Source: Legionellales bacterium (GTDB lineage Bacteria; Pseudomonadota; Gammaproteobacteria; DSM-16500). Taken from it: DNA of 64,000 nt. Under the pieces are notes generated by a model. That model worked only from the letters and a program-made list of their open reading frames with translations. It did not search any database and had not been told where the DNA came from. Where the stretch lies: assembly GCA_947478495.1 (NCBI GenBank), contig CANJVW010000001.1, positions 62,658 to 126,657 on the forward strand, given 5' to 3'. This document shows, in pieces, positions 45,823 to 60,015 of this stretch. Position 1 is the first letter of the stretch, and each line of letters begins with the position of its first letter. The translations under genes and the position numbers were made by a program.

Positions 45823-45899
45823 GCCAATACTCTAGATCTGATAATCGGTAAACGCAAGTCTATTGACCCCCAACCGACATTAATCGAAATTCAGGGGTG

Positions 45900-47566: not shown

Positions 47567-48802
47567 ATGATGAATAATAAGGACTTTAATACCAACATGC
47601 TAAAAACCATTAAACGCTTCATCACACTCGAATCTAGCACCGGCATCTTGCTCGGATTCGCTGCACTGTTTGCTATTATCATTAAGAACTCCTCTTTAAC
47701 CGCTTTTTATGATTCAATTATCAATCTACCCTTATCAATCAACATCGGTGAATTTTTAATAAAAAAACCGGCGATCATTTGGGTGAATGATTTTTTAATG
47801 GCATTCTTTTTTCTACTCGTTGGATTAGAGCTCAAACGAGAATGGCTTGAAGGACAGCTCTCCAAAAAAGTGAATTGCGCGCTACCTCTCATTGCCGCGC
47901 TCGGCGGGATTATTTTTCCTGCATTGATTTATGTCTATTTTAATAGAGAAAACGCCGTCGCCCTTCAAGGCTGGGCTATTCCTGCTGCGACTGATATTGC
48001 ATTTGCGTTAGGCGTGCTATCGTTGTTGGGTAATCGCATTCCGAGCTCACTAAAACTGTGCTTGCTTTCTCTTGCCATTTTTGATGATTTAGCCGCGATT
48101 CTGATTATCGCACTCTTCTACACGGATAATCTCTCCCTCATCTGGTTGCTGATCAGCGCCCTTCCCTTGTTTATGTTAAGTATTCTCAATAAATATGCTA
48201 TTCGATTCTTAACACCTTATTTATTGATTGGATTATTACTTTGGATTTGCATTTTAAAATCCGGCATTCACCCCACCATTGCGGGGATATTGCTCGCGCT
48301 CTTTATCCCGCTGCAAGCCGGTTCATGCTCCCCCCTTAAAACCATCGAGCATCGCCTCCACCCTTTAGTATCCTTTTGTATCCTACCCCTGTTTGCTTTT
48401 TTCAATGCGGGCGTTTCATTGCAAGGATTATCAATACATGCATTCACACAGCCGATTGCACTAGGCATCATGGCAGGATTATTTTTTGGAAAACAAATCG
48501 GTGTCATGTTTTTTTCGTTTGTGGGAGCACGGTGTGGGTGGTGCGCCCTACCGATTGATGTCACCTGGCGACAATATTATGGGATGGCTATTTTAACAGG
48601 CATTGGTTTTACGATGAGTTTATTTATCGGCATGCTCGCGTTTTCAGATCCCGCGCTCCACACAAGTGTACGCTTAAGCGTCATTGCAGGGTCGCTCGCA
48701 TCAGGCATCATAGGATATAGCATACTATTTTTCGCCCGCTCACCTCGCCACTATTCCCACACCCTATATTGTCATCCCCACGAAGGTGGGGATCCATCCT
48801 GA
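47567..48802 (+). CDS. nhaA: Na+/H+ antiporter NhaA
   Basis: WAIPAATDIAFALGVL and AIFDDLAAILIIALFY motifs. The start may be the internal MLKTIKRF. The last residues (CHPHEGGDPS) and the stop lie in a REP-3 arm. Confidence 0.9.
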   Translation: MMNNKDFNTNMLKTIKRFITLESSTGILLGFAALFAIIIKNSSLTAFYDSIINLPLSINIGEFLIKKPAIIWVNDFLMAFFFLLVGLELKREWLEGQLSKKVNCALPLIAALGGIIFPALIYVYFNRENAVALQGWAIPAATDIAFALGVLSLLGNRIPSSLKLCLLSLAIFDDLAAILIIALFYTDNLSLIWLLISALPLFMLSILNKYAIRFLTPYLLIGLLLWICILKSGIHPTIAGILLALFIPLQAGSCSPLKTIEHRLHPLVSFCILPLFAFFNAGVSLQGLSIHAFTQPIALGIMAGLFFGKQIGVMFFSFVGARCGWCALPIDVTWRQYYGMAILTGIGFTMSLFIGMLAFSDPALHTSVRLSVIAGSLASGIIGYSILFFARSPRHYSHTLYCHPHEGGDPS

Positions 48803-48868
48803 AAATATGCTCGACTATACAATTCTGCATTAATCTATAGATGGGTCCCCGCCTTCGCGGGGATGACA
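48769..48868. repeat. REP-3 inverted pair between convergent nhaA and gtrA-like genes
   Basis: gtcatccccacgaaggtggggatccatc (48771-48798) versus the reverse complement of 48841-48868, gtcatccccgcgaaggcggggacccat. Each arm contains its own CCCCRC-GAAG-GYGGGG mini-hairpin. Confidence 0.85.
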
Positions 48869-49293
48869 GCGCGCGAGACAGGAAACACCCAGTAACGCGC
48901 TAAAAAATAATTGAGATTGACTGTCACACCAAGCGATATAAGCATCCCCCAATATGGCGAAAGATGCAGATGTTCCACGACAAAACAGGTGATTGCAAAC
49001 GTCACCAAAAAACTTATTCCGATCATCGTTAGATAGCGTGGAAGCTGCCCAAAAGGACAGTGATGATGACTATCAAAGGCAAATCGTCTGTTCGATGTAA
49101 AATGCACCATGACAGACATCACGTAGGCTATCACAACAGACACCTTATAGTTGCAGTGCAAGCCTTTAAAAAAAACAGTAAATGACCCGAAATACACCAT
49201 GGCGGATAATAGCCCCACCATAATAAAAATAGACATCGACTTTTTGTGTGCCATCATATAGCTATATGTAAAACGGATTATTCGTTTAGGCAA
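48835..49293 (-). CDS. GtrA family membrane protein (lipid-linked sugar translocation family)
   Basis: 152-aa four-TM protein with GtrA-like spacing (FTSNRRFAF, YFLARYWVF). The C-terminal VIPAKAGTHL is encoded by REP-3. Confidence 0.7.
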   Translation of the reverse strand: MPKRIIRFTYSYMMAHKKSMSIFIMVGLLSAMVYFGSFTVFFKGLHCNYKVSVVIAYVMSVMVHFTSNRRFAFDSHHHCPFGQLPRYLTMIGISFLVTFAITCFVVEHLHLSPYWGMLISLGVTVNLNYFLARYWVFPVSRAVIPAKAGTHL

Positions 49294-49305
49294 TGTAAAG
49301 CATCC

Positions 49306-51051
49306 TTATTGTTGATAGGCTTTCCACAAATCGTAAACGGGGCCTGGGTGATTCAATAAGTCGGCCGTTGACCCTGAAATCAACTCACCCCCCTCGCTCA
49401 GCATGATAATGGAATCAAATAGCGGCAGCAAATGCAATCGATGTAAGGACACGATCATCGCAGCATCCGGAAAAGCGTGGATCACGCCCGACAGAATCTC
49501 TTTTTCGGTGAATAAATCCACGCTCGATGTGGGTTCATCCATTAAAATTAACGAACTGAACCGCGCCGCAAACAAGCCTCGGGCCAAGGCTAAGCGTTGC
49601 TTTTGGCCAACTGATAAATTCAATCCCTTTTCGCGAATATCCGTTTCAAACCCCAAGGGCAATGTTTCCAAAACGGCTAAAAATCCTGCGAGTTTCGCGG
49701 CATCAAGCATCGCGCTATCTGTCGTCTCTAAATCCATCGTAATATTAAACGCAATCGTATTTTCAAAGATCTCGGGGTCCTGTGGAATCAGTGTCGTAAT
49801 CGCTCTCAAGGGTTCAAGTGAATCGAATGATATACCATCAATAGCAAGATGCACGCTCGCTGGCACATACAACCCAGATATAATATTTAACAACGTACTT
49901 TTACCACCCCCACTCAAACCAATTAATGCTATTTTCTCACCACGCTTCACCGAAAAAGCCGTTTTATTAAAGATATGCCTCGATGCGCTGCCTGCATGAT
50001 AAAAAACAAGCTCTGAAATATGGAGGGTATGCCACTGTCTCGCAACTTGTTCCCCCGCAGGAATGTGGGCCAACTGTTTGATATCTTCCAATATAGGCTC
50101 TATCCCTCGGATGTCGGTATCCATACGCACCAATTCACTGTATTTGCTGCTAAGCTCTTTGAACACATTACCCAAATCGAGTTGGTAACGAAACATCATC
50201 ACGACTGTTCCGATCATGAGTGCGCCCGTTGCATGTAGCGCGTGAACAATATAACCGATCAAAAGAATCGCTTGTACAATCGACAGAAATACCATCATGG
50301 AAAACCATTTTACTTCGTTGAGCGCAACGTCTTTACGAAAAGCAGGCCAAACGGCCATCATGCGCTGAATAAAGTGATTGTGCGTTAACTTACCCAATCG
50401 CAACGTCAACACGGTTGTCATGTTGGTAATGTAATCAAATAAAATAGCGCCGACGCCATTATCGATTTCATTTTGCTTATCATAGAGCGGGATCAATCGA
50501 CGATCAAAGACAATCACAATCCACATCACAATCACTGAAGTGGCTAAGCTGAACAAACCAATTGGTAGCGATATCCAGAGCAAAAAGCCAACAGACATCA
50601 AAAACATCACAATAGTCTGGGCATAGGTAAATTGATTCTCTCCAAATTGACGCAAGGCTGTTGCTGCTCTAAAAAAACGAGTAAACACATTGCCGGAATG
50701 ATGATTTTGATGCCACTGAAGAGGAAGATGCGTCAGTTTCTCATACACACTTTGGCGAAAGTCTTGTTGAACCCTCAAGGCAACCTTACGCTCCACAATG
50801 CGGGCCGGGCCATGAAATGCCCAAAACAACAATAACACCCCCACATCCATCAACAGCCACATGATCAATTCCATCAAACGAGCCGGTGAAAAATGCTGCA
50901 ACACATCCACTGCACGGCCAAATATATAAGGACTCAACCCCAACGCGATTTGCGCAACGATTAATGCAATATAATAGCCAACAATCGAAAAACGCCATCG
51001 GGCGCCGTAGTGCCATACTGTGCTAATTAAGTTAAAATAAGGATTTTTCAT
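49306..51051 (-). CDS. ABC exporter, fused permease/ATPase (MsbA-type architecture)
   Basis: Six-TM N-domain. Walker A GLSGGGKST, signature LSVGQKQRLALAR, Walker B LILMDEPTS. Confidence 0.85.
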   Translation of the reverse strand: MKNPYFNLISTVWHYGARWRFSIVGYYIALIVAQIALGLSPYIFGRAVDVLQHFSPARLMELIMWLLMDVGVLLLFWAFHGPARIVERKVALRVQQDFRQSVYEKLTHLPLQWHQNHHSGNVFTRFFRAATALRQFGENQFTYAQTIVMFLMSVGFLLWISLPIGLFSLATSVIVMWIVIVFDRRLIPLYDKQNEIDNGVGAILFDYITNMTTVLTLRLGKLTHNHFIQRMMAVWPAFRKDVALNEVKWFSMMVFLSIVQAILLIGYIVHALHATGALMIGTVVMMFRYQLDLGNVFKELSSKYSELVRMDTDIRGIEPILEDIKQLAHIPAGEQVARQWHTLHISELVFYHAGSASRHIFNKTAFSVKRGEKIALIGLSGGGKSTLLNIISGLYVPASVHLAIDGISFDSLEPLRAITTLIPQDPEIFENTIAFNITMDLETTDSAMLDAAKLAGFLAVLETLPLGFETDIREKGLNLSVGQKQRLALARGLFAARFSSLILMDEPTSSVDLFTEKEILSGVIHAFPDAAMIVSLHRLHLLPLFDSIIMLSEGGELISGSTADLLNHPGPVYDLWKAYQQ

Positions 51052-51149
51052 AGAAATCTCAGTACATGTTCATCTATTTTACATATTTAATGTTATTTTA
51101 TCAATCAGCAACCTTTTAAAAATGCACATAATATGGCACACTGCCCGCT

Positions 51150-52568
51150 ATGACAGCAGACAATCATCGAGCTATCTATTGGGCAGAGTCAGCAGTGGTG
51201 TTATATCTTGTTGCGCCTTTGTTCTTGTTTTTCTGTTTTTATATTCGCCCCGAAGTCGGTATCCCGGGATGTGGCTTAATCGCGTGGTGCATTTACTCTA
51301 TTTGGAAAAAAACACAGTGGTCAGCCATTCGGACTGACATCAAATCATTGCTGATCATTCTTCCTATTTCAATCGCCTGGCTCGCACTCGGTGGAAATTT
51401 TGGCGGTTTGCCACAAAACGCAGATTGGTTAAAACATTATGCTGTCATCAATTTTATTGCTCAGCATAGCAATCAACTCAGCGATACCTATCATGGTCAC
51501 TTTGAAGTACTTCGAGAATATTTAGGGTGGTACCTTATTCCCGGGCTTATTGTGAAAGCCCTCAACGGACACGATCAAGTATTGGCTGCGGGGATTTGGA
51601 CATTAATAGGTATTGTGCTTTTCTTTGCATTAATCACTCATCACTTAAAAAGGAAAATGAAGCACGCAAGGCTGATTGTACCACTTGTATTTATCTTGTT
51701 TAGCGGCTTGGATATCATCGGATTTTTTCTAACACACCATAGGCTAGAATTTAATGTGGCATTTTGGGCAGGTTGGATACACTACAGTTCAAACACCTCC
51801 TCTCTTTTCTGGGCGCCCGAACATGCATTGCCGAGCTGGCTCGGTATCGCCATTTTAATGAGACAAATAGATCGCGCGACCTTGACACCCTATGTTGTGT
51901 TGATCGGTTCAGCTATTCTGTTTTGGTCCCCTTTTGCAATGATAGGACTCTTGCCCTTTGGTCTAGCTGTCATCCTAAAAAATGATGCTAAGAAAATCCT
52001 ATTAAATAAACAGACTGTTGCCACCTTGCTCTTGATCACACTACCTTTAATTCTTTACCTAACAGCCAATACTCAAGATATTTTGCGCGGATGGATTTGG
52101 GAAAACAGATGTGTGTATACTCAGACCCCCTGTTTTACAGGATTAGGGTATGCCCAATTTTTACTAATTGAAATTGGTGCCATTGTCATTCTCTTGTTTG
52201 CCAACAAAGAGACTCGATCCCTTTTTCTAGTGCTTGCAACAGGCAGTTTAATGCTTATCCCTCTCTATCGAATAGGTTTCTGGACCGATTTGGCAAAATC
52301 TGGCTCCATTCCTGCGCTAGCATTTTTGAGTATTGGCATGGCTCGTCTCATGGGATCAAAGACCACCCCCTCTATCAAAATAATTGCGGTTGTACTATTA
52401 GCGATCGGAATTATTTCTCCTATATGTGAAGTAGGGCGCCTCTCTGGTTGGCTGCGGACTGCTAAGGCTAATCCTTCTATTACATTTACTATGCCGTTTA
52501 TTTGGAACACGCCGTCATTTCTCCCACAGTATTTCTCCGATCAACCTATTTGGGTGTTGCGATCATGA
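51150..52568 (+). CDS. polytopic membrane protein, paralogue 1 (candidate GT-C-type transferase or polymerase)
   Basis: 472 aa, 10 or more hydrophobic segments. Conserved loops GNFGGLPQNADWLKHY and FWAPEHALPSWLG are shared with the downstream paralogue. Confidence 0.7.
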   Translation: MTADNHRAIYWAESAVVLYLVAPLFLFFCFYIRPEVGIPGCGLIAWCIYSIWKKTQWSAIRTDIKSLLIILPISIAWLALGGNFGGLPQNADWLKHYAVINFIAQHSNQLSDTYHGHFEVLREYLGWYLIPGLIVKALNGHDQVLAAGIWTLIGIVLFFALITHHLKRKMKHARLIVPLVFILFSGLDIIGFFLTHHRLEFNVAFWAGWIHYSSNTSSLFWAPEHALPSWLGIAILMRQIDRATLTPYVVLIGSAILFWSPFAMIGLLPFGLAVILKNDAKKILLNKQTVATLLLITLPLILYLTANTQDILRGWIWENRCVYTQTPCFTGLGYAQFLLIEIGAIVILLFANKETRSLFLVLATGSLMLIPLYRIGFWTDLAKSGSIPALAFLSIGMARLMGSKTTPSIKIIAVVLLAIGIISPICEVGRLSGWLRTAKANPSITFTMPFIWNTPSFLPQYFSDQPIWVLRS

Positions 52569-53998
52569 CAAATGATAAGCGAACTCTATATTGGGCAGAG
52601 TCAGCCGCTGTTTTATATCTCGTCGCACCTTTATTCTTATTTTTCTGTTTCTATATTCGCCCTGAAGTGGGCTTGCCGGGCTGCGGTTTCATCACGTGGT
52701 GTATTTACTCTATTTGGAAAAAAACACATTGGTCTATTACTCGAACCGACATCAAATCATTATGGATTATCCTCCCCATTTCAATCATCTGGCTAATGCT
52801 CGCTGGCAATTTTGGTGGTTTGTCGCAAAATTCCGATTGGCTAAAACATTATGCCGTCATCAACTTTATTGCGGACCACAGCCCCGCTCTCTCTGATGCG
52901 CACAACGGCCTTTTCGAGATATTGCGTTACTATCTGGGTTGGTACCTTATTCCTGGACTCGCTGTCAAGATAGCAGGCGGGCACGGCCAAATACTCTTTT
53001 CCAGTCTTTGGATACTGATTGGGATTATTCTTTTCTTTATATTGATCACCCGTCTATTAGGGGAAAAAATCAAGCATGCCTATCTTATCGGCCCCATCGT
53101 CTTTATCCTATTCAGCGGGGCGGATATCATCGGATATAGTATCACGCATTTCAAGATCCCTCTTCGATTTCATATTGAATGCTGGGCAGGCTGGGCTCAA
53201 TATAATGCCAATACAACCACCTTGTTTTGGGCGCCACCTCATGCTATTTCAGCATGGCTTGGCCTATCGATTTTGATGCAACAACTAAAAAAACCTGTCT
53301 TGTTGCCATACCTCACGCTGATCTGCTCAGCCATTCTATTCTGGTCCCCTTTTGTTGCAGTAGGGCTGATACCCTTTTGTCTCGCTGTCATGGTAAAATC
53401 GGGACTTAAAAATAGCATCATGAATTGGCATCTACCCACAACCGTTATTTTTATTTCATTGCCTATCGTGGCTTATTTAATGGCATATACCACAAATATC
53501 CCACACGGACCCATTTGGCTAGATCCATGGGTATGGGATCATGCACCGCATTTTACCTGGCCAGGATATATCTTATTTCTATTATTAGAAATCGGCGCCC
53601 CTTTAATTATTTTGTTTGCACAAAAAGATACTCGCAATCGCTTTCTCATCATCGCCACCATCAGTCTCATCTTGATCCCGCTCTATCGAGTTGGAGTATT
53701 AAATGACTTTGCAATGCGTGCATCACTTCCAGCTTTGGCTTTTTTGGCAATAGGCATGGCGTATATTATCGGATCGAGTGCATCACCCTATTATTTAAAA
53801 ATCTCGGTTATCCTCTTACTCACGATAGGCAGCATAACACCGATCGGAGAAGTCGCGAGAGGATTCTTCCCCCCCATTCTTCCTGCAAATCCTGCCACAA
53901 CATTTGATATGTCTTTTATCGGAAGTGATCCACCCTTTCGTTTGCAATATTTCTCCAGCCAACCTATTCCTATTCTACGACAAGGAACGCCACCATGA
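52565..53998 (+). CDS. polytopic membrane protein, paralogue 2
   Basis: The ATG at 52565 overlaps the paralogue-1 TGA (ATGA). It aligns from residue 1 (MTNDKRTLYWAESAAVLYLVAPLFLFFCFYIRPEVG) with paralogue 1. Confidence 0.7.
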   Translation: MTNDKRTLYWAESAAVLYLVAPLFLFFCFYIRPEVGLPGCGFITWCIYSIWKKTHWSITRTDIKSLWIILPISIIWLMLAGNFGGLSQNSDWLKHYAVINFIADHSPALSDAHNGLFEILRYYLGWYLIPGLAVKIAGGHGQILFSSLWILIGIILFFILITRLLGEKIKHAYLIGPIVFILFSGADIIGYSITHFKIPLRFHIECWAGWAQYNANTTTLFWAPPHAISAWLGLSILMQQLKKPVLLPYLTLICSAILFWSPFVAVGLIPFCLAVMVKSGLKNSIMNWHLPTTVIFISLPIVAYLMAYTTNIPHGPIWLDPWVWDHAPHFTWPGYILFLLLEIGAPLIILFAQKDTRNRFLIIATISLILIPLYRVGVLNDFAMRASLPALAFLAIGMAYIIGSSASPYYLKISVILLLTIGSITPIGEVARGFFPPILPANPATTFDMSFIGSDPPFRLQYFSSQPIPILRQGTPP

Positions 53999-54678
53999 TC
54001 ATTGGAAATGGATTGATCGCATCATCCTTTCATCCTCATTTTGAGAATAACGCTGATGTTATTATTTTTGCATCGGGTGTTTCAAACTCGCGTGAAACAA
54101 ATCCCGCTGCTTTTCAACGCGAAGAACGTTTATTGATGAATGCACTGGCATCTAAAAAATACTTAGTTTATTTCAGCACCTGTAGCCTATCCGATCCTGA
54201 GCTACAACAATCACCCTATGTAATGCATAAAATAAAAATAGAAGAGTTGGTGCGCTCATCTAAAGGCTACGCTATTTTTCGATTAACCCAAGTAGTTGGA
54301 AAAACATCCAATCCTCACACGCTCACCAACTATTTATACCAACACATTACATCCGATACGCCTTTCCAAATATGGCGCCACGCGAAACGAAATTTAATCG
54401 ATGTGGATGATGTAGTCTCTATAGCCACTTACTTGATTCAATCACCTCGTATGAGTAGAATAACCGAGAACATTGCATGTCCATTCTCTATCGGAATAGA
54501 TGAGCTCGTACGAATATTTGAGCATGTTCTACGCAAAAAAGCTGTTTACACGTTGAAAGATGCGGGCGGCGCCTACGCTATCGATACTCGATTAGCAACT
54601 GCCGCGGCAAAGAATATTTCCATTGATTTTAATGAAAATTATACTGAAAAACTCCTAAGAAAATATTATGTCTCATAA
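53995..54678 (+). CDS. short atypical SDR/NAD-dependent epimerase-reductase family protein
   Basis: N-terminal IIGNGLIASS (GxGxxA) and a YxxxK motif (YVMHK). 227 aa. ATGA overlap with paralogue 2. Confidence 0.55.
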   Translation: MIIGNGLIASSFHPHFENNADVIIFASGVSNSRETNPAAFQREERLLMNALASKKYLVYFSTCSLSDPELQQSPYVMHKIKIEELVRSSKGYAIFRLTQVVGKTSNPHTLTNYLYQHITSDTPFQIWRHAKRNLIDVDDVVSIATYLIQSPRMSRITENIACPFSIGIDELVRIFEHVLRKKAVYTLKDAGGAYAIDTRLATAAAKNISIDFNENYTEKLLRKYYVS

Positions 54679-55654
54679 AAATGCCTGTCAACTCTCTATC
54701 GTGATTCCTGTTTATCAAAGTGAGAAAATATTATCTCAGCTTGTCACAGAGATGCAGCGCGTCATGGACACCCTCCAGACAATAAGAAATAGTTACGAGA
54801 TTATCTTTGTATGTGACCAATCGCCCGACAACAGCTGGCAAGTCATTCAATCGTTATCAACCCATTTTCCAGAAGTGAAGGGTATCTTACTTCGCATTAA
54901 CGCGGGGCAACACAATGCGCTCATGGCAGGATTTTCTGAAGCAACAGGAAAAATCATTGTCACAATGGATGATGATCTACAGCATTCGCCATCTGATATC
55001 CCTGCATTGCTCGACGCAATCCATGCTGGAAAAGATGTCGTCTATGCGCAATTTAAAAAACGCAAACACGCCCTGTGGAAGCGAATGGGTAGCGGGTTGA
55101 ATGATATCGTCGCAGGCTATTTACTACAAAAACCCAAGGGACTCTACCTCTCTCCTTTTCGAGCTATGAAAGCGGCTATCCGAGATGATATCCTGCGTTA
55201 TCGTGGCCCTTATGTCTATGTAGACGGTTTAATTTTATCTGTCACACAAAACATTGCGATGATAGATGTGGATCATTACGATCGAGCGATTGGGAACAGC
55301 GGATACAGCTTTCGAAAATCGGTTTCGCTTTGGCTCAAGATGGCAACGAATTTTTCGATTGTACCCCTTCGCATTACATCCTTTCTCGGATTGCTTTTTG
55401 CGAGCATAGGATTTGTATTAGCGCTTCTTTTCATTATACAAAAATTGACGCTCGACCGCATGCCAACCGGTTGGTCTTCCCTGATTGTAACGATTCTCAT
55501 CATTGGTGGCGTTCAGTTGCTCGCGCTAGGTATGCTCGGTGAATACCTTGGGCGCGTATTGCTAACGCTCAATGTCCGACCGCAATATGTCATTGGTGAG
55601 ACCATTAACTGTTGGATTACATCTAGAGAGACTGCCCATGTCGAAACAATATGA
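54668..55654 (+). CDS. GT2 polyprenyl-phosphate glycosyltransferase (GtrB/ArnC/DPM1-like)
   Basis: LSIVIPVYQSE, VCDQSPDNS, TMDDDLQHSP (DxD region) and two C-terminal TM helices. Confidence 0.85.
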   Translation: MSHKNACQLSIVIPVYQSEKILSQLVTEMQRVMDTLQTIRNSYEIIFVCDQSPDNSWQVIQSLSTHFPEVKGILLRINAGQHNALMAGFSEATGKIIVTMDDDLQHSPSDIPALLDAIHAGKDVVYAQFKKRKHALWKRMGSGLNDIVAGYLLQKPKGLYLSPFRAMKAAIRDDILRYRGPYVYVDGLILSVTQNIAMIDVDHYDRAIGNSGYSFRKSVSLWLKMATNFSIVPLRITSFLGLLFASIGFVLALLFIIQKLTLDRMPTGWSSLIVTILIIGGVQLLALGMLGEYLGRVLLTLNVRPQYVIGETINCWITSRETAHVETI

Positions 55655-56957
55655 TGTCGCGATCGTTGGCGCAGGATTTACGGGTTTAACAGCTGCATTC
55701 GCATTATCCAAACAAGGTCTTAGCGTCATTGTACTGGAATCGGATTCATCCGTCGGTGGGCTTGCTGGTACATTTACCTTTTCTGATGGTGTTGCACTTG
55801 AAAAATTTTATCACCATTGGTTTAACAATGATGTGTATGTGCCTGCATTAGTCAAAGAACTTAGGTTGGAAGGAGATGTCGTGATGCTTCCCAGTCGAAC
55901 CGGGATGTATTTTAATGGCCGACTTTGGAAGCTCTCGACTCCATTAGACTTGCTTCGCTTTAAAGCGTTATCGCTCATCAACCGCATTCGACTCGGTTTG
56001 TTTGTGCTGCAAGTGCGGCGCATCAAAGATTGGAAAACGATCGAGCATCTCTCCGCCAAAGAATGGCTTGAATCGCTTTGCGGAAAAACGGTGTATCGTG
56101 TCGTGTGGGAACCGCTCATCACCTCCAAATTTTCAATCTATGCGGATGCAGTGAATGCAGTATGGATGTGGAAAAAACTGGTTCTTCGAGGCAGCACACG
56201 AAACAAAAAAGGCAATGAAGAGCTGGCGTATTTTAAAGGCGGTTTTGGTCGACTCGCACAAGCCCTGGTTACAGCCATTGAAAAAAACGGCGGCACAGTG
56301 CGTCTCAATACACCTATCACCGGCGTCAGCGTCTCCGACAATAAAGTGACTGCACTGCATTCTACTGCGGGCGATATTGATGCTCGCCAATTTCTTTTCA
56401 CGCCCGCTTTCCCCATCATCGCTGATATGTTCAAAGACGTGGTCAATCCAACTTGGATTGCTGCTTTGCGCCGCGTGAAATATTTAGGCAATATGTGCTT
56501 GGTATTGCGGCTCAAACAGAGTCTCTCCGATATGTATTGGTTAAACATCAATGACCCTGGCTTTCCTTTTGTTGGCGTGATTGAGCACACCAATTTTGAT
56601 GCGCCTGAACACTACAACGGATCACGTATCGCTTTTCTATCGCGTTATCTCGCGACTGAAGATCTTGTTTGGGGCTACAGCGATAAACAATATCTCGACT
56701 TTGCATTAACTCACTTAAAGCGCATGTTTCCCGATTTAGATCGATCCTGGATTATCGATTATCGTGTTTGGCGAGCGGAGTATGCGCAACCCATCACCGA
56801 AAGAGACTATTCAAAATACCTGCCTGGATCGGAGACACCGTTTGATAATGCCTTTATTTCAACAATGGCTCACATCTATCCGGAAGATCGCGGAACAAAT
56901 TACGCGATACGCGAAGGGTATCGCATCGCAGAAATATTACAACAAAGGATACTATAA
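55638..56957 (+). CDS. FAD/NAD(P)-binding oxidoreductase (amine-oxidase/phytoene-desaturase-like fold)
   Basis: YDVAIVGAGFTGLTAAFALSKQGLSVIVLESDSSVGGL dinucleotide-binding motif. Start set at the ATG at 55638, which overlaps the GT2 end by 17 nt. Confidence 0.8.
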   Translation: MSKQYDVAIVGAGFTGLTAAFALSKQGLSVIVLESDSSVGGLAGTFTFSDGVALEKFYHHWFNNDVYVPALVKELRLEGDVVMLPSRTGMYFNGRLWKLSTPLDLLRFKALSLINRIRLGLFVLQVRRIKDWKTIEHLSAKEWLESLCGKTVYRVVWEPLITSKFSIYADAVNAVWMWKKLVLRGSTRNKKGNEELAYFKGGFGRLAQALVTAIEKNGGTVRLNTPITGVSVSDNKVTALHSTAGDIDARQFLFTPAFPIIADMFKDVVNPTWIAALRRVKYLGNMCLVLRLKQSLSDMYWLNINDPGFPFVGVIEHTNFDAPEHYNGSRIAFLSRYLATEDLVWGYSDKQYLDFALTHLKRMFPDLDRSWIIDYRVWRAEYAQPITERDYSKYLPGSETPFDNAFISTMAHIYPEDRGTNYAIREGYRIAEILQQRIL

Positions 56958-56959
56958 TC

Positions 56960-57961
56960 ATGTCTTATCAGCCTTCTACTATATTGGTCACGGGTGGCGC
57001 AGGATTCATTGGCAGTAACTTTATTCGCTGCCTACTCAAAGAAAATTCTTCTGTTAAAGTAGTGAATCTCGATGCGCTGACCTACGCGGGCTCCCTTGAT
57101 AATTTACATGACTTGTCCGATCCCACCCGATATGTTTTTATTCATGGCGATATCAACGATGCCGCATTAGTCAGCCACATACTCCATCAGCATGTCATTG
57201 ATACCATTGTCCACTTTGCTGCTGAAAGCCATGTCGATCGATCCATCGAAAAACCAGCGACATTTATTCAAACCAATATCATCGGTACATTCACCTTATT
57301 AGAAGCAGCCCGAGAACAGTGGCTCATCAAAAACAAATGGGATGAAAATCATTGTCGGTTTCATCATATTTCAACCGATGAAGTGTATGGGTCGTTAACA
57401 GCGGATGCGCCGGCTTTCGCAGAGACAACGGCTTACACGCCTCGCTCGCCCTATTCTGCATCGAAAGCAGGATCAGACCATTTAGTCAATGCCTATTGTC
57501 ATACGTATGGCCTGCCAATCACGATGAGCAATTGCTCCAATAATTATGGGCCTTACCAACATACTGAAAAACTGATCCCCACTATCATTCGCGCGTGTCT
57601 CGAAGGCAAGCCCATTCCCATTTATGGCGATGGAAGTAATATTCGTGATTGGCTGTATGTAGAAGATCATTGTCGTGGGATTATGCGCATTTTAGAAAAT
57701 GGCAAAATTGGTGAAACCTATAATATTGGCGGGAATAATGAAATGAATAATCTCGCTATTGCACATGCTATTTGTGACATTTTCGATGAGCTGCGTCCCG
57801 CATCAGCTCCACATCGATCACTTATTCAACTTGTTAAAGATCGTCCGGGGCACGATTGGCGATATGCAGTGAACATCGAGAAGATACGCGAAAAATTGGG
57901 CTGGCAACCGCGCGAAACCTTTGAAAAGGGTATCCGAAAAACAATTGCATTTTATCTATGA
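56960..57961 (+). CDS. rfbB: dTDP-glucose 4,6-dehydratase
   Basis: ILVTGGAGFIGSNF, AAESHVDRS and YSASKAGSDHLV (YxxxK) motifs. Confidence 0.93.
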   Translation: MSYQPSTILVTGGAGFIGSNFIRCLLKENSSVKVVNLDALTYAGSLDNLHDLSDPTRYVFIHGDINDAALVSHILHQHVIDTIVHFAAESHVDRSIEKPATFIQTNIIGTFTLLEAAREQWLIKNKWDENHCRFHHISTDEVYGSLTADAPAFAETTAYTPRSPYSASKAGSDHLVNAYCHTYGLPITMSNCSNNYGPYQHTEKLIPTIIRACLEGKPIPIYGDGSNIRDWLYVEDHCRGIMRILENGKIGETYNIGGNNEMNNLAIAHAICDIFDELRPASAPHRSLIQLVKDRPGHDWRYAVNIEKIREKLGWQPRETFEKGIRKTIAFYL

Positions 57962-58019
57962 ATAGGAACGGCCACGACTACATAATTTTTATGTTTATAC
58001 ACCGCCTTTTTTTCATAAA

Positions 58020-58048
58020 GGAGAATATCAGATTTCTTCATATTCTCC
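58020..58048. terminator. hairpin at the rfbB / rfbA-operon convergence point
   Basis: ggagaatat (58020-58028) / atattctcc (58040-58048), 9-bp stem. On the minus strand it is followed by TTTATGAAAAAAA. Overlaps the stop of the small ORF. Confidence 0.3.
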
Positions 58049-58291
58049 TCGTAGCGATCCGTTAAAACAATATAATCCAAAAGCAGACAACTGAACCAAA
58101 CATATCAAAAGAATAATGCTATTCCGACAGCGATAATACTGAAACCCATATACTGAAAAAATAAACCAAAATGGAAGAAGCGAGATAAAGTAATAGCCTG
58201 CTTTATTCGGTTGAGCGATCATCAAAAACAAGGCATTAATCAATACAATAAAAAAAATAACGCGCATTATTTTATTATGGTTTCTTTTCAT
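58028..58291 (-). CDS. small hydrophobic ORF (possible membrane-protein remnant)
   Basis: 87-aa ORF with three hydrophobic segments, 14 nt downstream of rfbA. No motif. Confidence 0.3.
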   Translation of the reverse strand: MKRNHNKIMRVIFFIVLINALFLMIAQPNKAGYYFISLLPFWFIFSVYGFQYYRCRNSIILLICLVQLSAFGLYCFNGSLRGEYEEI

Positions 58292-58305
58292 TAACTGAAA
58301 AGCAC

Positions 58306-59229
58306 CTAGAATAAGGCCGAATACCCCTCTCTGACAACGTTAGACTCCAGTAATTTTTGAAGGTACTGGCCATAACCACTTTTTAATAATGGCTCTGCCA
58401 GCGATAAAAGTTGAGAACTCGTAATGTAGCCCATTCGCCACGCCACCTCTTCAGGACAGCCGACCTTCAACCCTTGGCGATGCTCTAATATCTGAATAAA
58501 ATTAGCAGCCTCTAACCACGATGATGGCGTCCCCATATCTAGCCAAGCTACTCCCCGCCCTATTTGAATCACCTCTAACGCCTGCTCTGATAAATACATT
58601 CGAGCAATATCGGTGACCTCTAGCTCGCCTCGTCTCGAGGGTTTCAACTGCTTAGCCCACTCCACCACGCGGTTATCAAAAAAATATAATCCGATTGCTG
58701 CATAGCTTGATAAGTACTTCGTGGGTTTTTCTACAATCTCGACAGGACGATTATTCTCATCAAATCGAACGACACCATAGCGCTCAGGATCTTGCACGTA
58801 ATAGGCAAAAATAGTCCCGCCATTCGTTTTTTGAGCCGCGAACTGCAATTGAGCGGGAATGCGATCACCATATAAAATGTTATCGCCCAGCATCAAACAC
58901 ACAGGATCATTTCCAATAAACTCTTCTCCTACAACAAATGCATCTGCGATGCCGCGTGGTTTATCCTGGGACGCATACTGCAAACGAATACCCCACTGAT
59001 GACCATCGCCCAATAATTTTTGAAAAAGCGCGCGCTCATGCTCCCAAGTAATAATCAAGATATCGCGTATCCCCGCCAGCATCAACGCGGTCAAAGGGTA
59101 ATACAGCATCGGTTTGTCATAGACGGGTAGCAATTGCTTGGAAATGATGCGTGTTGCCGGATAAAATCGCGTTCCATTGCCACCAGCGAGAAGAATGCCC
59201 TTACAAGCGGGTAATGGTGTGTTTAGCAT
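58306..59229 (-). CDS. rfbA: glucose-1-phosphate thymidylyltransferase
   Basis: GILLAGGNGTRFYPATRIISKQLLPVYDKPMLYYPL and YGVVRFD motifs. Confidence 0.93.
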   Translation of the reverse strand: MLNTPLPACKGILLAGGNGTRFYPATRIISKQLLPVYDKPMLYYPLTALMLAGIRDILIITWEHERALFQKLLGDGHQWGIRLQYASQDKPRGIADAFVVGEEFIGNDPVCLMLGDNILYGDRIPAQLQFAAQKTNGGTIFAYYVQDPERYGVVRFDENNRPVEIVEKPTKYLSSYAAIGLYFFDNRVVEWAKQLKPSRRGELEVTDIARMYLSEQALEVIQIGRGVAWLDMGTPSSWLEAANFIQILEHRQGLKVGCPEEVAWRMGYITSSQLLSLAEPLLKSGYGQYLQKLLESNVVREGYSALF

Positions 59230-59268: not shown

Positions 59269-60015
59269 TCAACTACTTTTCTCATAGGCCGCTAACACTT
59301 CCTCGACGCTACCCAGCATCATAATTTTTCCCTTATTTAGCCACAACGCTTTATTGCAAAATTGTCGAATCACTGCCGCTGCATGTGACGCAATCACCAA
59401 GATTTCTGCTTTATCATAAAGCGCTTTTGCACGCACCGCTGCTTTTTCAAGAAAATGTTTATCGCCTGCGCCAATTGCTTCATCCAGCAGCAAAATTTCG
59501 GGCTCAATACACGTACAAATCGCAAAACCTAAACGCATTTTCATGCCAGCAGAATATCCTCTCACTGGCAAATTGAGCGAGTCTTTTAATTCAGAAAATT
59601 CTTCTATTCCAGGAATGAGTGATTTAATTTTTTTCTGAGAAAACCCCAACAACATTCCCATGTAATAAATGTTGTGGTACCCGGTTCTCTCCATATCCAT
59701 TCCCATACAGACATCAAATAAAGCAGAAACCCTACCCTCAATTAATAACCGACCTTTAACAGGCACATACAATTGGCCAAGTGTTTTGAGCAACGTACTT
59801 TTCCCTGAGCCATTCGTCCCAATTAACCCCAACCGATCGCCTTGTCTCAGAGAAAATGACACACCATTCAGCGCTTTAACGACCGTCATTGCATTTTCTT
59901 CGGCGTATACCCTGCCGCGCGTCGTCAAACTGATTAATGCTCGACGAAAGGAATAATCATGATTTCCATAAATGGGGTAATGTACTTCAATATTTTCCAA
60001 TTCTATTTTTGCCAT
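59269..60015 (-). CDS. polysaccharide-export ABC transporter ATP-binding protein (KpsT/Wzt/TagH-like)
   Basis: Walker A GTNGSGKST. Family-typical YSAGMKMRLGFA signature. Walker B ILLLDEA. 248 aa, so no C-terminal carbohydrate-binding extension. Confidence 0.85.
   Translation of the reverse strand: MAKIELENIEVHYPIYGNHDYSFRRALISLTTRGRVYAEENAMTVVKALNGVSFSLRQGDRLGLIGTNGSGKSTLLKTLGQLYVPVKGRLLIEGRVSALFDVCMGMDMERTGYHNIYYMGMLLGFSQKKIKSLIPGIEEFSELKDSLNLPVRGYSAGMKMRLGFAICTCIEPEILLLDEAIGAGDKHFLEKAAVRAKALYDKAEILVIASHAAAVIRQFCNKALWLNKGKIMMLGSVEEVLAAYEKSS

Follow-up and report, generated by a model that had tools for sequence, protein, structure and literature searches.

The locus analyzed here lies at positions 48835-57961 of a 64,000-nucleotide stretch of metagenomic DNA from a Legionellales bacterium (hereafter the window) and consists of two divergent operons. 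All eight open reading frames (ORFs) listed in an earlier, sequence-only reading were found at the positions given there when the ORFs were checked on the sequence, and genes predicted separately on the source metagenome contig form the identical set. The leftward operon (minus strand) encodes a fused ABC exporter of 581 aa with a TMD and an NBD (49306-51051), followed by a small membrane protein of the GtrA family (48835-49257); the domain searches agree with both of these prior assignments (ABC_membrane, 4.3e-18, and ABC_tran, 3e-22, in Pfam; PF04138, GtrA_DPMS_TM, 4.4e-20, 72.5 bits, above the cut-off of 26.1). The start of gtrA is ambiguous between an ATG at 49257, which gives the 140-aa protein of the source-contig gene call, and a TTG at 49293; the exporter gene, on the same strand, lies 48 nt upstream of the former and 12 nt upstream of the latter.

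The rightward operon (plus strand) comprises genes for two polytopic paralogues (51150-52568, 472 aa, and 52565-53998, 477 aa, the latter length also in the source-contig gene call), a short extended-type SDR of 227 aa (53995-54678), a GT2 of 328 aa (54668-55654), a flavoprotein of 439 aa (55638-56957) and RfbB, the dTDP-glucose 4,6-dehydratase (56960-57961). The junctions are those described before: a common ATGA joins the two paralogues (52565-52568) and, again, paralogue 2 and the SDR gene (53995-53998), the SDR and GT2 genes overlap by 11 nt (54668-54678), the GT2 and flavoprotein genes by 17 nt (55638-55654), and a 2-nt gap separates the end of the flavoprotein gene at 56957 from the start of rfbB at 56960. 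The longest ORFs of paralogue 2 and of the flavoprotein begin at 52502 and 55572, upstream of the likely starts at 52565 (an ATG) and 55638, respectively. Beyond this interval, an RfbA-type glucose-1-phosphate thymidylyltransferase of 307 aa (58306-59229, minus strand; NTP_transferase, 1e-65) is encoded convergently with the rightward operon.

The intergenic region between the two operons (51052-51149) is indeed 98 bp long and AT-rich (GC 0.31, compared with 0.45 across the window). The promoter role that had been assigned to it gains no support from the counts of promoter-like hexamers, which show no excess over the interval 48600-58400 (28 observed, 23.7 +/- 6.2 in shuffled sequences); a single promoter-like site, on the minus strand at 51104-51076, falls inside the region, and a promoter common to both operons is plausible. 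The exporter was compared with models of MsbA-related, HepA and glucan exporters, all of which score far under their cut-offs. Within 9 kb on either side of the flavoenzyme gene, no homologue of the exporter is encoded at any of the 84 related loci that were read, so that the proposed flippase role finds no support; the exporter is probably a lineage-specific neighbor.

The GT2 protein (PF00535, 8.7e-27) aligns end to end with the solved structures of ArnC (9hwj, 1.4e-44, residues 8-313) and GtrB (5ekp, 2.6e-36) and carries two C-terminal hydrophobic segments (229-247 and 267-285), that is, the GtrB/ArnC/DPM1 architecture that had been recognized in it. Sequence homology thus identifies it as a polyprenyl-phosphate glycosyltransferase of the ArnC/GtrB type; its score against the ArnC model NF007986 (3.6e-53, 180.6 bits), for which the cut-off is 529, is too low for ArnC itself. 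The rfbB assignment is secured by TIGR01181 at a score above the equivalog cut-off (6.5e-144, 478.9 bits compared with 365.1), and the RfbA of the window is 54-59% identical to the RfbA-type ORFs of five related loci (L007, L019, L030, L031 and L047). By family assignment, these two enzymes would supply dTDP-4-keto-6-deoxyglucose; neither rfbC nor rfbD was found anywhere in the 64-kb window.

The two polytopic paralogues, a tandem duplication, are 60% identical over 475 residues. Paralogue 1 has no match in Pfam or NCBIfam and belongs to a family of 4334 representative clusters, in which D92, located after the third predicted helix, is near-invariant. In a Foldseek comparison of its AF2 model (pLDDT 91.2, pTM 0.93) with the PDB, the best matches are GT-C enzymes, namely AftA (8if8, E 4e-3, prob 1.0), AglB, EmbA/B, ALG12 and PglB, although by absolute standards the similarity is weak (E 4e-3, TM 0.34-0.42), and no sequence-level link of the paralogues to any solved GT-C structure was found. 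There is also a weak profile match (prob 66%, E 5.5e-5) between paralogue 1 and the MEMa proteins encoded downstream of the flavoenzyme elsewhere, in which the column equivalent to D92 is aligned. Both paralogues are therefore described here as candidate GT-C-fold transferases for a lipid-linked sugar, on the strength of the predicted structure; as anticipated in the sequence-only reading, the model matches GT-C structures and not Wzy or O-antigen ligases.

The flavoprotein belongs to the NF005560 family (5.5e-151, 503 bits compared with a cut-off of 252), the model of which is named "hypothetical protein". It matches Amino_oxidase (2.2e-31, residues 36-454 of the long ORF) and NAD_binding_8, and in Foldseek its best match is PDS (5mog, 2e-19), followed by PPO, CrtI, MAO and RabGDI. 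Among NCBIfam models, NF005560 and the PRK07208 "hypothetical protein" models are followed by HpnE (3.4e-20), protoporphyrinogen oxidase and phytoene desaturase. Without a transmembrane segment or a signal-like N-terminus, the protein appears to be cytoplasmic. Across the three clades of these flavoenzymes, 68 positions are conserved, many of them polar or aromatic, including E55, Y58, H59, R118, E136, K164, R188, E316, N319, D417 and R418, a pattern that would suit a polar sugar-phosphate no less than a lipid as the ligand. A DprE1-like identity is ruled out by the fold class (amine oxidase/PDS, not VAO/DprE1-type).

An identity with UDP-galactopyranose mutase (UGM) is likewise ruled out: Pfam searches find no GLF domain, and the 50 closest structures include no UGM. 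The flavoenzyme does not match any characterized nucleotide-sugar enzyme, in agreement with what had been assumed. A redox-neutral, UGM-like isomerization of the carrier-linked sugar, from pyranose to furanose (for instance, Und-P-D-Fucp to Und-P-D-Fucf, or Galp to Galf) or with an anomeric change, is a separate matter. The N-terminal part of the flavoenzyme (residues 5-75, some 70 residues), and no other part, matches UGM 1i8t at E 1e-4; some NCBI records label members of the family "UDP-galactopyranose mutase"; one related locus (L043) combines a GalE-like SDR with a GT2-FLP-FAD-GT-C arrangement; and in the 6-deoxyhexose cassettes every enzyme already has a place in a complete pathway. The D-rhamnan O-antigens of pseudomonads bear D-Fucf side chains, and in E. 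coli O52 dTDP-D-Fucf is made by a reductase and a Glf-like mutase. Nevertheless, the same two absences, of the GLF domain and of UGM structures, also weigh against an isomerase of this kind, as does the presence of the family in the UbiA/DprE1/DprE2 operons, whose sugar is a furanose from the outset, and we consider such a reaction rather improbable.

The genomic neighborhoods are more informative on the substrate. A species-level genome scan confirmed at least 592 related genome stretches, and the bacterial species in which an NF005560 member adjoins a lipid-carrier sugar synthase number several hundred or more. Neighbors that stay constant are GT-C candidates and a polyprenyl-P-sugar synthase, of either the GT2 or the UbiA type, usually along with a flippase-type protein; common ones are a flippase-like protein (TIGR00374/PF03706) or GtrA and large polytopic proteins, some of which match PMT_2, DUF2079 or PTPS_related. 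An ArnC/GtrB-like GT2 gene adjoins that of the flavoenzyme in 72 of the 83 loci of the flavoenzyme cluster, and further GT2 neighbors were recovered by tblastn (5 loci) and by Pfam (2 loci, with divergent GT2s). By contrast, the nucleotide pathway (CDP or dTDP), the SDR type, the GT2 lineage and the flippase type all vary. The flavoenzyme of the window shares 74% identity with its counterparts in Pseudomonas, Cupriavidus and Methylomonas, where the cassettes encode CDP-glucose enzymes (TIGR02623, TIGR02622), a different SDR and flippase, and a GT2 just 26% identical to that of the window. The window-type cassette, SDRa-GT2-[GtrA]-FAD (SDRa being the family of the 227-aa SDR), recurs in Beta-, Alpha- and Gammaproteobacteria, with gtrA located between the GT2 and flavoenzyme genes in most of the other cases; the combination, which the earlier reading had not recognized as a described system in Gammaproteobacteria, is not rare, and a literature search found no paper on it.

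Because the polyprenyl-P-sugar synthase is constant whereas the nucleotide pathway, SDR, GT2 lineage and flippase vary, the most likely substrate of the flavoenzyme, judging from gene context, is a lipid-linked sugar, as had been proposed. The cytoplasmic location of the enzyme and the translational coupling of its gene to those of GT2 and RfbB would also suit an action on the nucleotide sugar, before the GT2 step, in an otherwise ordinary GtrABC-like system. This alternative is, however, very unlikely: flavoenzyme identity remains at 62-77% across cassettes that differ in pathway (CDP or dTDP), GT2 lineage and type of flippase; the neighbor-joining tree shows window-type cassettes as polyphyletic, with their branches nested within those of the CDP type, so that the tree does not track the nucleotide; and members well above the NF005560 cut-off (510 bits) are encoded in PRPP-based UbiA(PPPRS)-DprE1-DprE2-SDR-FAD-GtrA operons of Rhizobiales, Rhodobacteraceae and Burkholderia that involve no nucleotide sugar.

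SDRa matches the Pfam Epimerase domain only in its C-terminal part (1e-7), contains the motifs GNGLIA, S/T and YVMHK, and has neither a hydrophobic segment nor a signal-like N-terminus. Truncation is ruled out: all 14 family members found start with MI[IL]G.G and are of about equal length, and the protein that had been called atypical is a member of a genuine full-length family. The 13 homologues (47-56% identity) are each encoded directly upstream of a window-type GT2, and the family is limited to window-type cassettes, with a GT2 of the window lineage and GtrA where one is present. RfbA/RfbB genes adjoin the SDRa cassette in the window and at two other loci (L030 and L047), where RfbB and RfbA are encoded directly upstream of SDRa. 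In the PDB, the family profile matches nucleotide-sugar SDRs only (8v4g, 7.6e-6), which favors a nucleotide-sugar reductase over the proposed action on the carrier. Which SDR family is present depends on the cassette as a whole: SDRb co-occurs with CDP genes, and SDRa, SDRb and a 310-aa type are not orthologous and are each bound to one cassette type. On this combined evidence SDRa is most likely a dTDP-4-keto-6-deoxyhexose 4-reductase, although at 227 aa it is unusually short for a nucleotide-sugar extended SDR.

The original proposal was that the flavoenzyme turns a hydroxyl group of the sugar, while on the carrier, into a ketone that the SDR then reduces from the other face, a non-homologous analogue of DprE1/DprE2 epimerizing the sugar on undecaprenyl phosphate. 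The link of the flavoenzyme to polyprenyl-P-sugar synthases regardless of nucleotide would suit this scheme, as would the short length of SDRa, the presence of an SDR in all cassettes of the clade with at least 62% identity, including the window, and the extended SDR encoded immediately upstream of the flavoenzyme in the UbiA-type operons. In pentofuranose systems, the choice between Xylf and Ribf has been shown genetically to depend on a GalE-like SDR, and the authors place this epimerization on undP-Ribf (Kelly et al., 2024; PMC11127046). The analogy nevertheless fares poorly: the flavoenzyme is not of the VAO/DprE1 type, nor does the SDR belong to the classical SDRs typified by DprE2; neither SDRa nor SDRb has a member at the 36 loci of the more distant flavoenzyme clade (~50% identity); the cassette-bound SDR types are not orthologous; and genuine DprE1 and DprE2 are present alongside the flavoenzyme in Rhizobiales and Burkholderia. 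Furthermore, a 4-ketoreductase is needed after RfbB, and SDRa, the sole SDR available, is more simply read as this enzyme than as a DprE2 analogue. We know of no sugar-alcohol oxidase in the amine-oxidase/PDS superfamily either, and an epimerization of this kind seems unlikely to us.

Oxidation of the carrier-linked sugar with no reductase dedicated to the product, the SDR acting earlier, on the nucleotide sugar, and the resulting ulose transferred as such or tailored further (by C-methylation or by reduction through other enzymes), appears equally unlikely. It would account for the polar residues conserved in all flavoenzyme clades and for four cyanobacterial loci with a TylC3-type sugar C-methyltransferase (PF08421, PF08484) near GT2-FAD, a membrane protein and GT-C-type proteins, but with no dehydratase or SDR nearby; this arrangement hints at sugar oxidation because TylC3-type enzymes need a keto-sugar. 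However, keto-sugars are rare in known bacterial glycans, whereas this family is present in at least 592 genome stretches; the 4,6-dehydratase already makes a keto-sugar in the 6-deoxyhexose cassettes; and we are aware of no member of this flavoprotein superfamily that oxidizes a hydroxyl group.

Our single best guess, a tentative one, is that the flavin step is independent of the sugar and directed at the donor's isoprenoid or the portion close to its phosphate; an isoprene unit could be saturated, desaturated or isomerized, reactions of the kind catalyzed by the related phytoene desaturase, CrtI and HpnE and by CRTISO and RetSat, members of the same superfamily. The best fold matches (PDS, PPO, CrtI and the prenyl-binding RabGDI) and the next NCBIfam matches point in this direction, as does the complete sugar pathway that the other enzymes provide in every cassette type, whereas, to our knowledge, no modified (for example, alpha-saturated) undecaprenyl phosphate has been described in these bacteria. 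Oxidation of a sugar hydroxyl, taken as a general possibility, is almost as likely.

Taken together, the gene content makes it somewhat probable that the locus encodes a Gtr-type, three-component system for extracytoplasmic glycosylation with a D-6-deoxyhexose, to which a conserved flavoenzyme has been added; the Gtr-like character perceived earlier is upheld by the GtrB/ArnC-type GT2, GtrA and the polytopic GT-C-like proteins, whereas the DprE1/DprE2 analogy is not. RfbA and RfbB would produce dTDP-4-keto-6-deoxy-D-glucose, the 4-keto group of which SDRa would reduce, yielding dTDP-D-quinovose or dTDP-D-fucose; GT2, by homology, would move the sugar onto undecaprenyl phosphate at the cytoplasmic face. 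The cytoplasmic flavoenzyme would then work on the lipid-linked intermediate, as its gene neighborhoods suggest, GtrA, a candidate translocase or hub, would aid translocation, and the two GT-C-fold paralogues would pass the sugar to one or two acceptor sites, in the periplasm, of a surface glycan.

Among known systems, GtrA/GtrB/GtrC of Shigella and Salmonella phages resembles the locus in the GT2 with two C-terminal transmembrane segments, GtrA and the polytopic GT-C-type transferase. It differs in drawing on UDP-glucose rather than on the dTDP-6-deoxyhexose branch (RfbA, RfbB, SDR), and the window adds two tandem GT-C paralogues, of a family without a Pfam model, and a fourth conserved enzyme, the NF005560 flavoprotein, which is absent from the Gtr paradigm as we know it. 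The ArnC/ArnT/ArnEF pathway, which attaches L-Ara4N to lipid A, follows the same course from a tailored sugar nucleotide through Und-P-sugar and flipping to GT-C transfer and includes the closest solved GT2 homologue, ArnC; the window GT2, however, falls far short of the ArnC equivalog cut-off, homologues of ArnA, ArnB, ArnD and ArnT are missing from the window, and GtrA stands in place of ArnE/F. The PDS, CrtI, HpnE and PPO flavoenzymes are the nearest relatives by fold and by the next NCBIfam matches, but the window enzyme scores far under the cut-offs of those families, and its context is glycan assembly rather than carotenoid, hopanoid or haem synthesis.

The pentofuranose three-component systems (PMC11127046) likewise build extracytoplasmic side chains with a polyprenyl-P-sugar synthase, an exporter, a GT-C protein and auxiliary epimerases that diversify the sugar, whereas in the window the entry is a nucleotide sugar and GT2 instead of PRPP and PPPRS, and the candidate exporter is GtrA instead of a MATE protein. 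The main text of that paper does not discuss the flavoenzyme, since the terms "FAD" and "oxidoreductase" are absent from it. Finally, the mycobacterial decaprenyl-phospho-arabinose pathway (UbiA/Rv3806c, DprE1, DprE2, Rv3789, AftA/Emb) also tailors a sugar on polyprenyl phosphate before GT-C transfer, and it includes AftA, the best structural match of paralogue 1; NF005560 members share operons with homologues of UbiA, DprE1, DprE2 and GtrA in Rhizobiales, Rhodobacteraceae and Burkholderia. The window, in contrast, lacks UbiA, DprE1 and DprE2, its flavoenzyme has the amine oxidase/PDS fold rather than the VAO fold, its SDR is of the extended rather than the classical type, and where both sets of enzymes occur together, the flavoenzyme is an addition to DprE1/DprE2, not a replacement.

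The locus (window 48835-57961) is of value because it exposes a widespread, uncharacterised flavoenzyme tied to polyprenyl-phosphate-sugar pathways. Its genes form two divergent sets that are parted by a 98-bp region of low GC content (51052-51149, GC 0.31). In the leftward set, the gene of a fused ABC exporter (49306-51051) lies upstream of a GtrA-family gene (48835-49257 or 49293), on the same strand and 48 nt before its ATG start. The rightward set comprises six genes, including two polytopic paralogues (51150-52568 and 52565-53998), a 227-aa short-chain dehydrogenase/reductase (SDR; 53995-54678), a family 2 glycosyltransferase (GT2; 54668-55654), the flavoenzyme (55638-56957) and rfbB; the first two junctions are ATGA overlaps, the next two are overlaps of 11 and 17 nt, and the last is a gap of 2 nt. 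These genes and junctions, as described in the sequence-only reading, are borne out by the sequence and by the gene calls on the source contig (ENA ERZ27277814). A promoter region common to both operons within 51052-51149 is a reasonable candidate; promoter-like hexamers occur over the locus at chance level, and a terminator scan of the locus returned nothing beyond that level. The GC content of the locus is 0.435, compared with 0.448 for the window.

At the left edge, between nhaA and gtrA, a 26-nt element, GTCATCCCCRCGAAGGYGGGGAYCCA, is present twice in inverted orientation (48771-48796, plus strand, and 48842-48867, minus strand) with a spacing of 45 bp, each copy enclosing a small palindrome; no such pair is expected by chance. 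The nhaA and gtrA open reading frames run into the element and consequently end in odd C-termini (..HPHEGGDPS and ..PAKAGTHL). The arrangement is suggestive of either a bidirectional terminator or a REP-like element.

In searches against the PDB, the GT2 aligns over ~306 residues each with ArnC (1.4e-44) and GtrB (2.6e-36), and it contains two C-terminal hydrophobic segments (229-247 and 267-285). On these alignments, the protein is predicted to be a polyprenyl-phosphate glycosyltransferase of the ArnC/GtrB class; it is homologous to ArnC, but identity with ArnC is rejected since it scores 180.6 bits on NF007986, far short of the equivalog cut-off of 529. GtrA matches PF04138 at 72.5 bits (cut-off 26.1), and RfbB exceeds the equivalog cut-off of TIGR01181 (478.9 bits against 365.1). 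An RfbA-type gene (58306-59229), convergent with the operon, is located just beyond the interval. No homologues of rfbC or rfbD were found across the whole 64 kb window, and the dTDP-4-keto-6-deoxyglucose made at the locus is therefore not meant for L-rhamnose. A second gene of the NTP_transferase family (26661-27539, minus strand; 292 aa), some 30 kb upstream, encodes a protein with 25% identity to the RfbA-type protein.

The flavoenzyme matches NF005560 (PRK07233), a model that carries the name "hypothetical protein", with 503.3 bits (cut-off 252) over model positions 2-430 of 435, and belongs to the Amino_oxidase/NAD_binding_8 family. This family is large and strongly conserved: over 5600 homologues reach E <= 1e-20, and identity is 72-77% for the 120 listed. 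The AF2 model of the flavoenzyme is of moderate quality (pLDDT 75.8); its best fold match is phytoene desaturase (2e-19), followed by protoporphyrinogen oxidases, CrtI, amine oxidases and RabGDI. The protein has no hydrophobic segment and no signal-like N-terminus and is therefore placed on the cytoplasmic side. Identification as UDP-galactopyranose mutase (UGM; Glf or Fcf2) is rejected: PF03275 (GLF) gives no match at E <= 0.01, the UGM structure 1i8t aligns with residues 5-75 only (E 1e-4), and no UGM is found among the 50 best Foldseek matches. The sequence-only reading, which depended on this distinction, holds in this respect.

The genomic context of the family was surveyed by scanning one genome per species, and at least 592 related stretches were confirmed; the 84 loci read here are the best 80 of these, three complete genomes and the window (individual loci are denoted by L-numbers). 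ORF clustering places an ArnC/GtrB-like GT2 beside the flavoenzyme in 72 of the 83 loci of the flavoenzyme cluster. By tblastn, five apparently GT2-less loci have a homologous GT2, four of them beside the flavoenzyme and the fifth, in L066, at the edge of the locus, and two further loci (L086 and L089) contain a divergent GT2 together with a GT-C-type protein, as detected by Pfam. A flippase-like protein (PF03706/TIGR00374) is encoded in 42 loci and GtrA in ~15 others, and the usual gene after that of the flavoenzyme encodes a large polytopic protein; some of these polytopic neighbours carry a PMT_2, DUF2079 or PTPS_related domain, or DUF7024 at the C-terminus. Thus, a flavoenzyme that is currently annotated as "hypothetical protein" or as "NAD(P)/FAD-dependent oxidoreductase" regularly accompanies the three-component machinery. 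Among its hosts are Pseudomonas, Yersinia, Legionella, Cupriavidus, rhizobia, methanotrophs, cyanobacteria and Bacteroidia, and the association holds for GT2-type and PRPP/UbiA-type synthases alike. In complete genomes of E. coli, a blastn search with the Yersinia copy detected no homologue.

Four cassette types can be distinguished around the flavoenzyme. Type I, found in Pseudomonas, Yersinia rohdei, Y. frederiksenii, Legionella anisa, Cupriavidus and Methylomonas, and often within O-antigen clusters of the ABC-transporter type, consists of CDP-glucose 4,6-dehydratase, a 270-aa SDR, GT2, glucose-1-P cytidylyltransferase, a flippase-like protein, the flavoenzyme and a membrane protein. Type II, that of the window, combines the 227-aa SDR, a GT2 (57-73% identical to that of the window), GtrA in most loci, the flavoenzyme and a membrane protein. 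The gene combination, not recognised in the sequence-only reading as a described system in Gammaproteobacteria, is not rare: such cassettes recur in Massilia, Duganella, Undibacterium, Rhodoferax, Methylobacter and Rhizobium, with RfbB and RfbA encoded directly upstream in two Rhizobium loci. The minimal type, from cyanobacteria, Bacteroidia, Acidobacteria and Gemmatimonadota, includes a GT2, sometimes a flippase-like protein, and a flavoenzyme ~50% identical to that of the window; neither the SDR family of the window (SDRa) nor the one that accompanies the CDP genes (SDRb) is represented in these loci. A fourth type, the UbiA type, came to light in tblastn searches; on plasmids and contigs from Agrobacterium, Rhizobium, Rhodobacteraceae and Burkholderia it encodes, in this order, UbiA (PPPRS), DprE1-like and DprE2-like proteins, a 310-aa extended SDR, an NF005560 protein and GtrA. 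The flavoenzyme of this type is only 28-32% identical to that of the window, yet scores 510 bits on NF005560 (510.2 bits in L090). The operon is conserved in L090 (2455-8637), L091, L092, L093 and L094, and its gene content is that of a Gram-negative pathway of the D-Araf type to which two further enzymes have been added.

The polytopic paralogues, which share 60% identity, match no Pfam or NCBIfam model. A word-indexed search recovered only 59 relatives, but a full profile search yielded 4334 representative clusters (2626 at E <= 1e-30); these proteins hence constitute a sizeable family that lacks a family model. An AF2 model built from 51 sequences (pLDDT 91.2, pTM 0.93) retrieves AftA, AglB, EmbA/B, ALG12 and PglB as the leading PDB structures in Foldseek, with PimE, ALG3 and ALG9 lower; seven of the eight best matches are GT-C enzymes (prob 0.97-1.0), all these similarities being weak in absolute terms (E 4e-3 to 4e-2, TM 0.34-0.42). 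Neither the paralogues nor the MEMa proteins, a membrane-protein group encoded after the flavoenzyme in other genomes, match any solved structure at the sequence level. Identity with Wzy or O-antigen ligases is rejected: there is no Pfam match to Wzy_C, O-antigen ligase or EpsG, and Wzy, WaaL and RodA/SEDS structures are absent among the 50 best Foldseek matches. On the basis of fold similarity, we accept the proposal that the paralogues are transferases of the GT-C type and not of the Wzy/ligase type. A near-invariant aspartate, D92, follows the third predicted helix, behind a Lys/Arg-rich loop that we read as cytoplasmic, and aligns with an aspartate that is invariant among the MEMa proteins (hhalign prob 66%, E 5.5e-5); by profile comparison, the proteins of another such group, MEMc, are unrelated to the paralogue family. 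For long, fused members of the family, Pfam shows no informative partner domain.

Homologues of the paralogues are encoded near the flavoenzyme in four other loci (L034, with 40-44% identity, L027, L047 and L018). Pairs of GT-C-candidate genes (two MEMa genes, or one of the MEMb group and one MEMa) often accompany the flavoenzyme, as in L036 (6570-10547), L037 (4717-8623), L050 (11320-15213), L023, L027 and L040; they usually follow it immediately, those of L023 and L040 preceding the cassette. Two transferases per cassette, like the tandem paralogues of the window, are accordingly a recurrent theme. A distant family member, P0018 (25 contigs), is found within a Wzx-type polysaccharide cluster (L005/L006, 9001-10455), along with an NDP-hexose 2,3-dehydratase, an aminotransferase, GT2, GT87 and LuxC/LuxE-like genes. 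In L005/L006 there is no NF005560 gene near P0018, and the paralogue family is therefore not confined to flavoenzyme systems.

The stage at which the flavoenzyme acts can be addressed by comparing the cassettes. The flavoenzyme of the window is 74% identical to type I copies whereas the GT2 is only 26% identical to type I GT2s, and the SDR, the flippase candidate and the transferases are unrelated to their type I counterparts; in a neighbor-joining tree, type II cassettes are polyphyletic, with the window, L021, L030 and L047 falling among type I copies. It follows that recombination has brought the flavoenzyme gene together with different nucleotide-sugar branches, which argues against a nucleotide sugar as the substrate and makes action at that stage very improbable. 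The recurrent companions of the flavoenzyme are a synthase of polyprenyl-P-sugars, GT-C candidates and, in most cases, a candidate translocase. Such neighbourhoods suggest that the flavoenzyme probably acts on the lipid-linked sugar, at the cytoplasmic face and before export.

Tailoring on the carrier, as first proposed, thus probably stands, but the attendant partnership with an SDR of the DprE1/DprE2 kind probably does not. The SDR of the window, with its Gly-rich N-terminus, S/T and YVMHK as read from the sequence, belongs to a tight family of ~227 aa; PF01370 (Epimerase) is its sole Pfam match, and in the PDB the SDRa profile matches nucleotide-sugar SDRs exclusively (8v4g, 7.6e-6). The SDR family type tracks the remainder of the cassette, and no SDRa or SDRb gene lies within 8 kb in any locus of the flavoenzyme clade of ~50% identity (36 loci). 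The SDRa profile has no specific relation to SDRb or to the 310-aa SDRs, so that the SDRs do not form a single family of co-evolving partners; NCBIfam searches with the alternative SDRs gave generic nucleotide-sugar SDR matches only. We read the 227-aa protein as a putative dTDP-4-keto-6-deoxyhexose reductase because such an activity is needed after the 4,6-dehydratase, and this protein is the sole candidate, has a nucleotide-sugar profile and is cassette-bound. A reductase acting before the GT2 step, which the sequence-only reading had itself named as an outcome that would count against its model, is favoured, and the SDR is probably not an on-carrier partner of the flavoenzyme.

Several reactions can be envisaged for the flavin step. 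Our first choice, tentative and by a narrow margin, is a sugar-independent step in the isoprenoid or close to the phosphate. In every cassette type, the sugar pathway is already complete from the remaining enzymes, enzymes with isoprenoid or hydrophobic substrates make up the nearest named families and share the fold, and the flavoenzyme gene moves freely among cassettes. In the same superfamily, RetSat and CRTISO saturate or isomerise isoprenoid double bonds. One possibility is that an isoprene unit of undecaprenyl phosphate would be saturated or isomerised, yielding a dolichol-like donor pool dedicated to periplasmic GT-C enzymes.

Oxidation of the sugar itself is given nearly equal weight. 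Across all clades of the flavoenzyme, 68 positions are conserved, many of them polar, and in four cyanobacterial loci a TylC3-type C-methyltransferase is encoded near the GT2 and flavoenzyme genes, with no dehydratase or SDR nearby; enzymes of this type require a keto-sugar. These loci (L055, L056, L057 and L061, including Rhopalodia endosymbionts) also encode a membrane protein of 520-640 aa, and the methyltransferase contains the domains PF08421 and PF08484; in L061, which was examined in detail, PMT_2 and PTPS_related membrane proteins are encoded nearby and a dehydratase or SDR is not. The cluster is retained even in the ~3-Mb genomes of diatom endosymbionts. About half of the weight we give to sugar oxidation goes to a version in which the SDR serves as the reductase, itself doubtful; in its favour, an extended SDR adjoins the flavoenzyme in UbiA-type operons, which have no nucleotide sugar, and in another system genetics shows that an SDR decides between Xylf and Ribf, a step that the authors place on undP-Ribf (Kelly et al., PMC11127046). 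A UGM-like isomerase of the ring or anomer would suit side chains with D-Fucf or Galf but is at odds with the structural matches and the UbiA-type context, and we consider it unlikely.

Several flanking genes are of note. The ABC exporter, an MsbA/HepA/glucan-exporter-like half-transporter that scores below all equivalog cut-offs, had been counted as part of the system, probably wrongly: no homologue is encoded near the flavoenzyme in the related loci read. We treat it as a neighbour, which could be a flippase or an exporter of another polymer. A stand-alone ABC ATPase (59269-60015, minus strand; 248 aa), with no adjacent permease gene, lies between rfbA and a sulfation module (60029-63833) that adjoins the locus and encodes a fused ATP sulfurylase/APS kinase (579 aa), a CysQ-like protein of the inositol-monophosphatase family (267 aa) and a 419-aa protein that combines a Sulfotransfer_1 domain with a DUF2061 membrane domain at its N-terminus. 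The module suggests that the source organism may produce a sulfated surface glycan or lipid. On the other side (44392-47462, minus strand), a 476-aa Bac_transf phosphoglycosyl transferase with CoA_binding_3, possibly the priming enzyme for the acceptor glycan, is encoded directly after rpsL; the next gene encodes a 520-aa protein that matches no Pfam family and contains several hydrophobic segments.

In the accepted scheme, three-component systems have three parts, a synthase, a flippase and a GT-C transferase. It is a possibility, if a somewhat speculative one, that NF005560 flavoproteins are the missing fourth component of such systems in many phyla, remodelling the lipid-linked donor whatever its sugar. 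If the flavoenzyme does tailor the lipid-linked donor, an unrecognised step would be added to a central pathway of bacterial glycobiology; if its role is confined to oxidising or isomerising one given sugar, what has been found is an O-antigen variant of the ordinary kind. Periplasmic side-chain glycosylation is a driver of the antigenic diversity of O-antigens and cell walls, of phage resistance and of vaccine design.

Compared with known systems, the locus bears out the proposed Gtr-like logic: it encodes a GtrB-type GT2 with a GT-A domain and two C-terminal TM helices, a GtrA-family small membrane protein with a score above the cut-off and, as candidates by predicted fold, polytopic GT-C transferases. 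The analogy with DprE1/DprE2 probably does not hold. DprE1 belongs to the VAO/FAD_binding_4 family, whereas the flavoenzyme is of the Amino_oxidase/NAD_binding_8 family with a phytoene desaturase/protoporphyrinogen oxidase fold; DprE2 is a classical adh_short SDR, whereas the SDR of the window is of the Epimerase type; and an oxidase and reductase of this kind would be expected always to be co-encoded, whereas the flavoenzyme occurs without SDRa or SDRb in the ~50% clade. Furthermore, NF005560 proteins coexist with real DprE1 and DprE2 homologues, a genuine DprE1-like protein (NF053785, 3.4e-111) being encoded in L090 by a separate gene. In the open-access literature, we found no description of the flavoenzyme family or of the gene set. 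In P. paraeruginosa PA7 (10.1101/2020.04.19.049825), the D-Araf cluster PsPA7_6245-6251 has two "hypothetical" genes behind DprE2, the loss of which left pilin glycosylation unaltered; by synteny with L090-L094, PsPA7_6250 and 6251 might be the SDR and NF005560 pair, which would then be dispensable for synthesis and transfer of the donor. The nearest published systems are the pentofuranose three-component systems (Kelly et al., 2024, PMC11127046), and a commentary on that work mentions unexplored FAD-dependent oxidoreductases and epimerases in the Bacillus versions.
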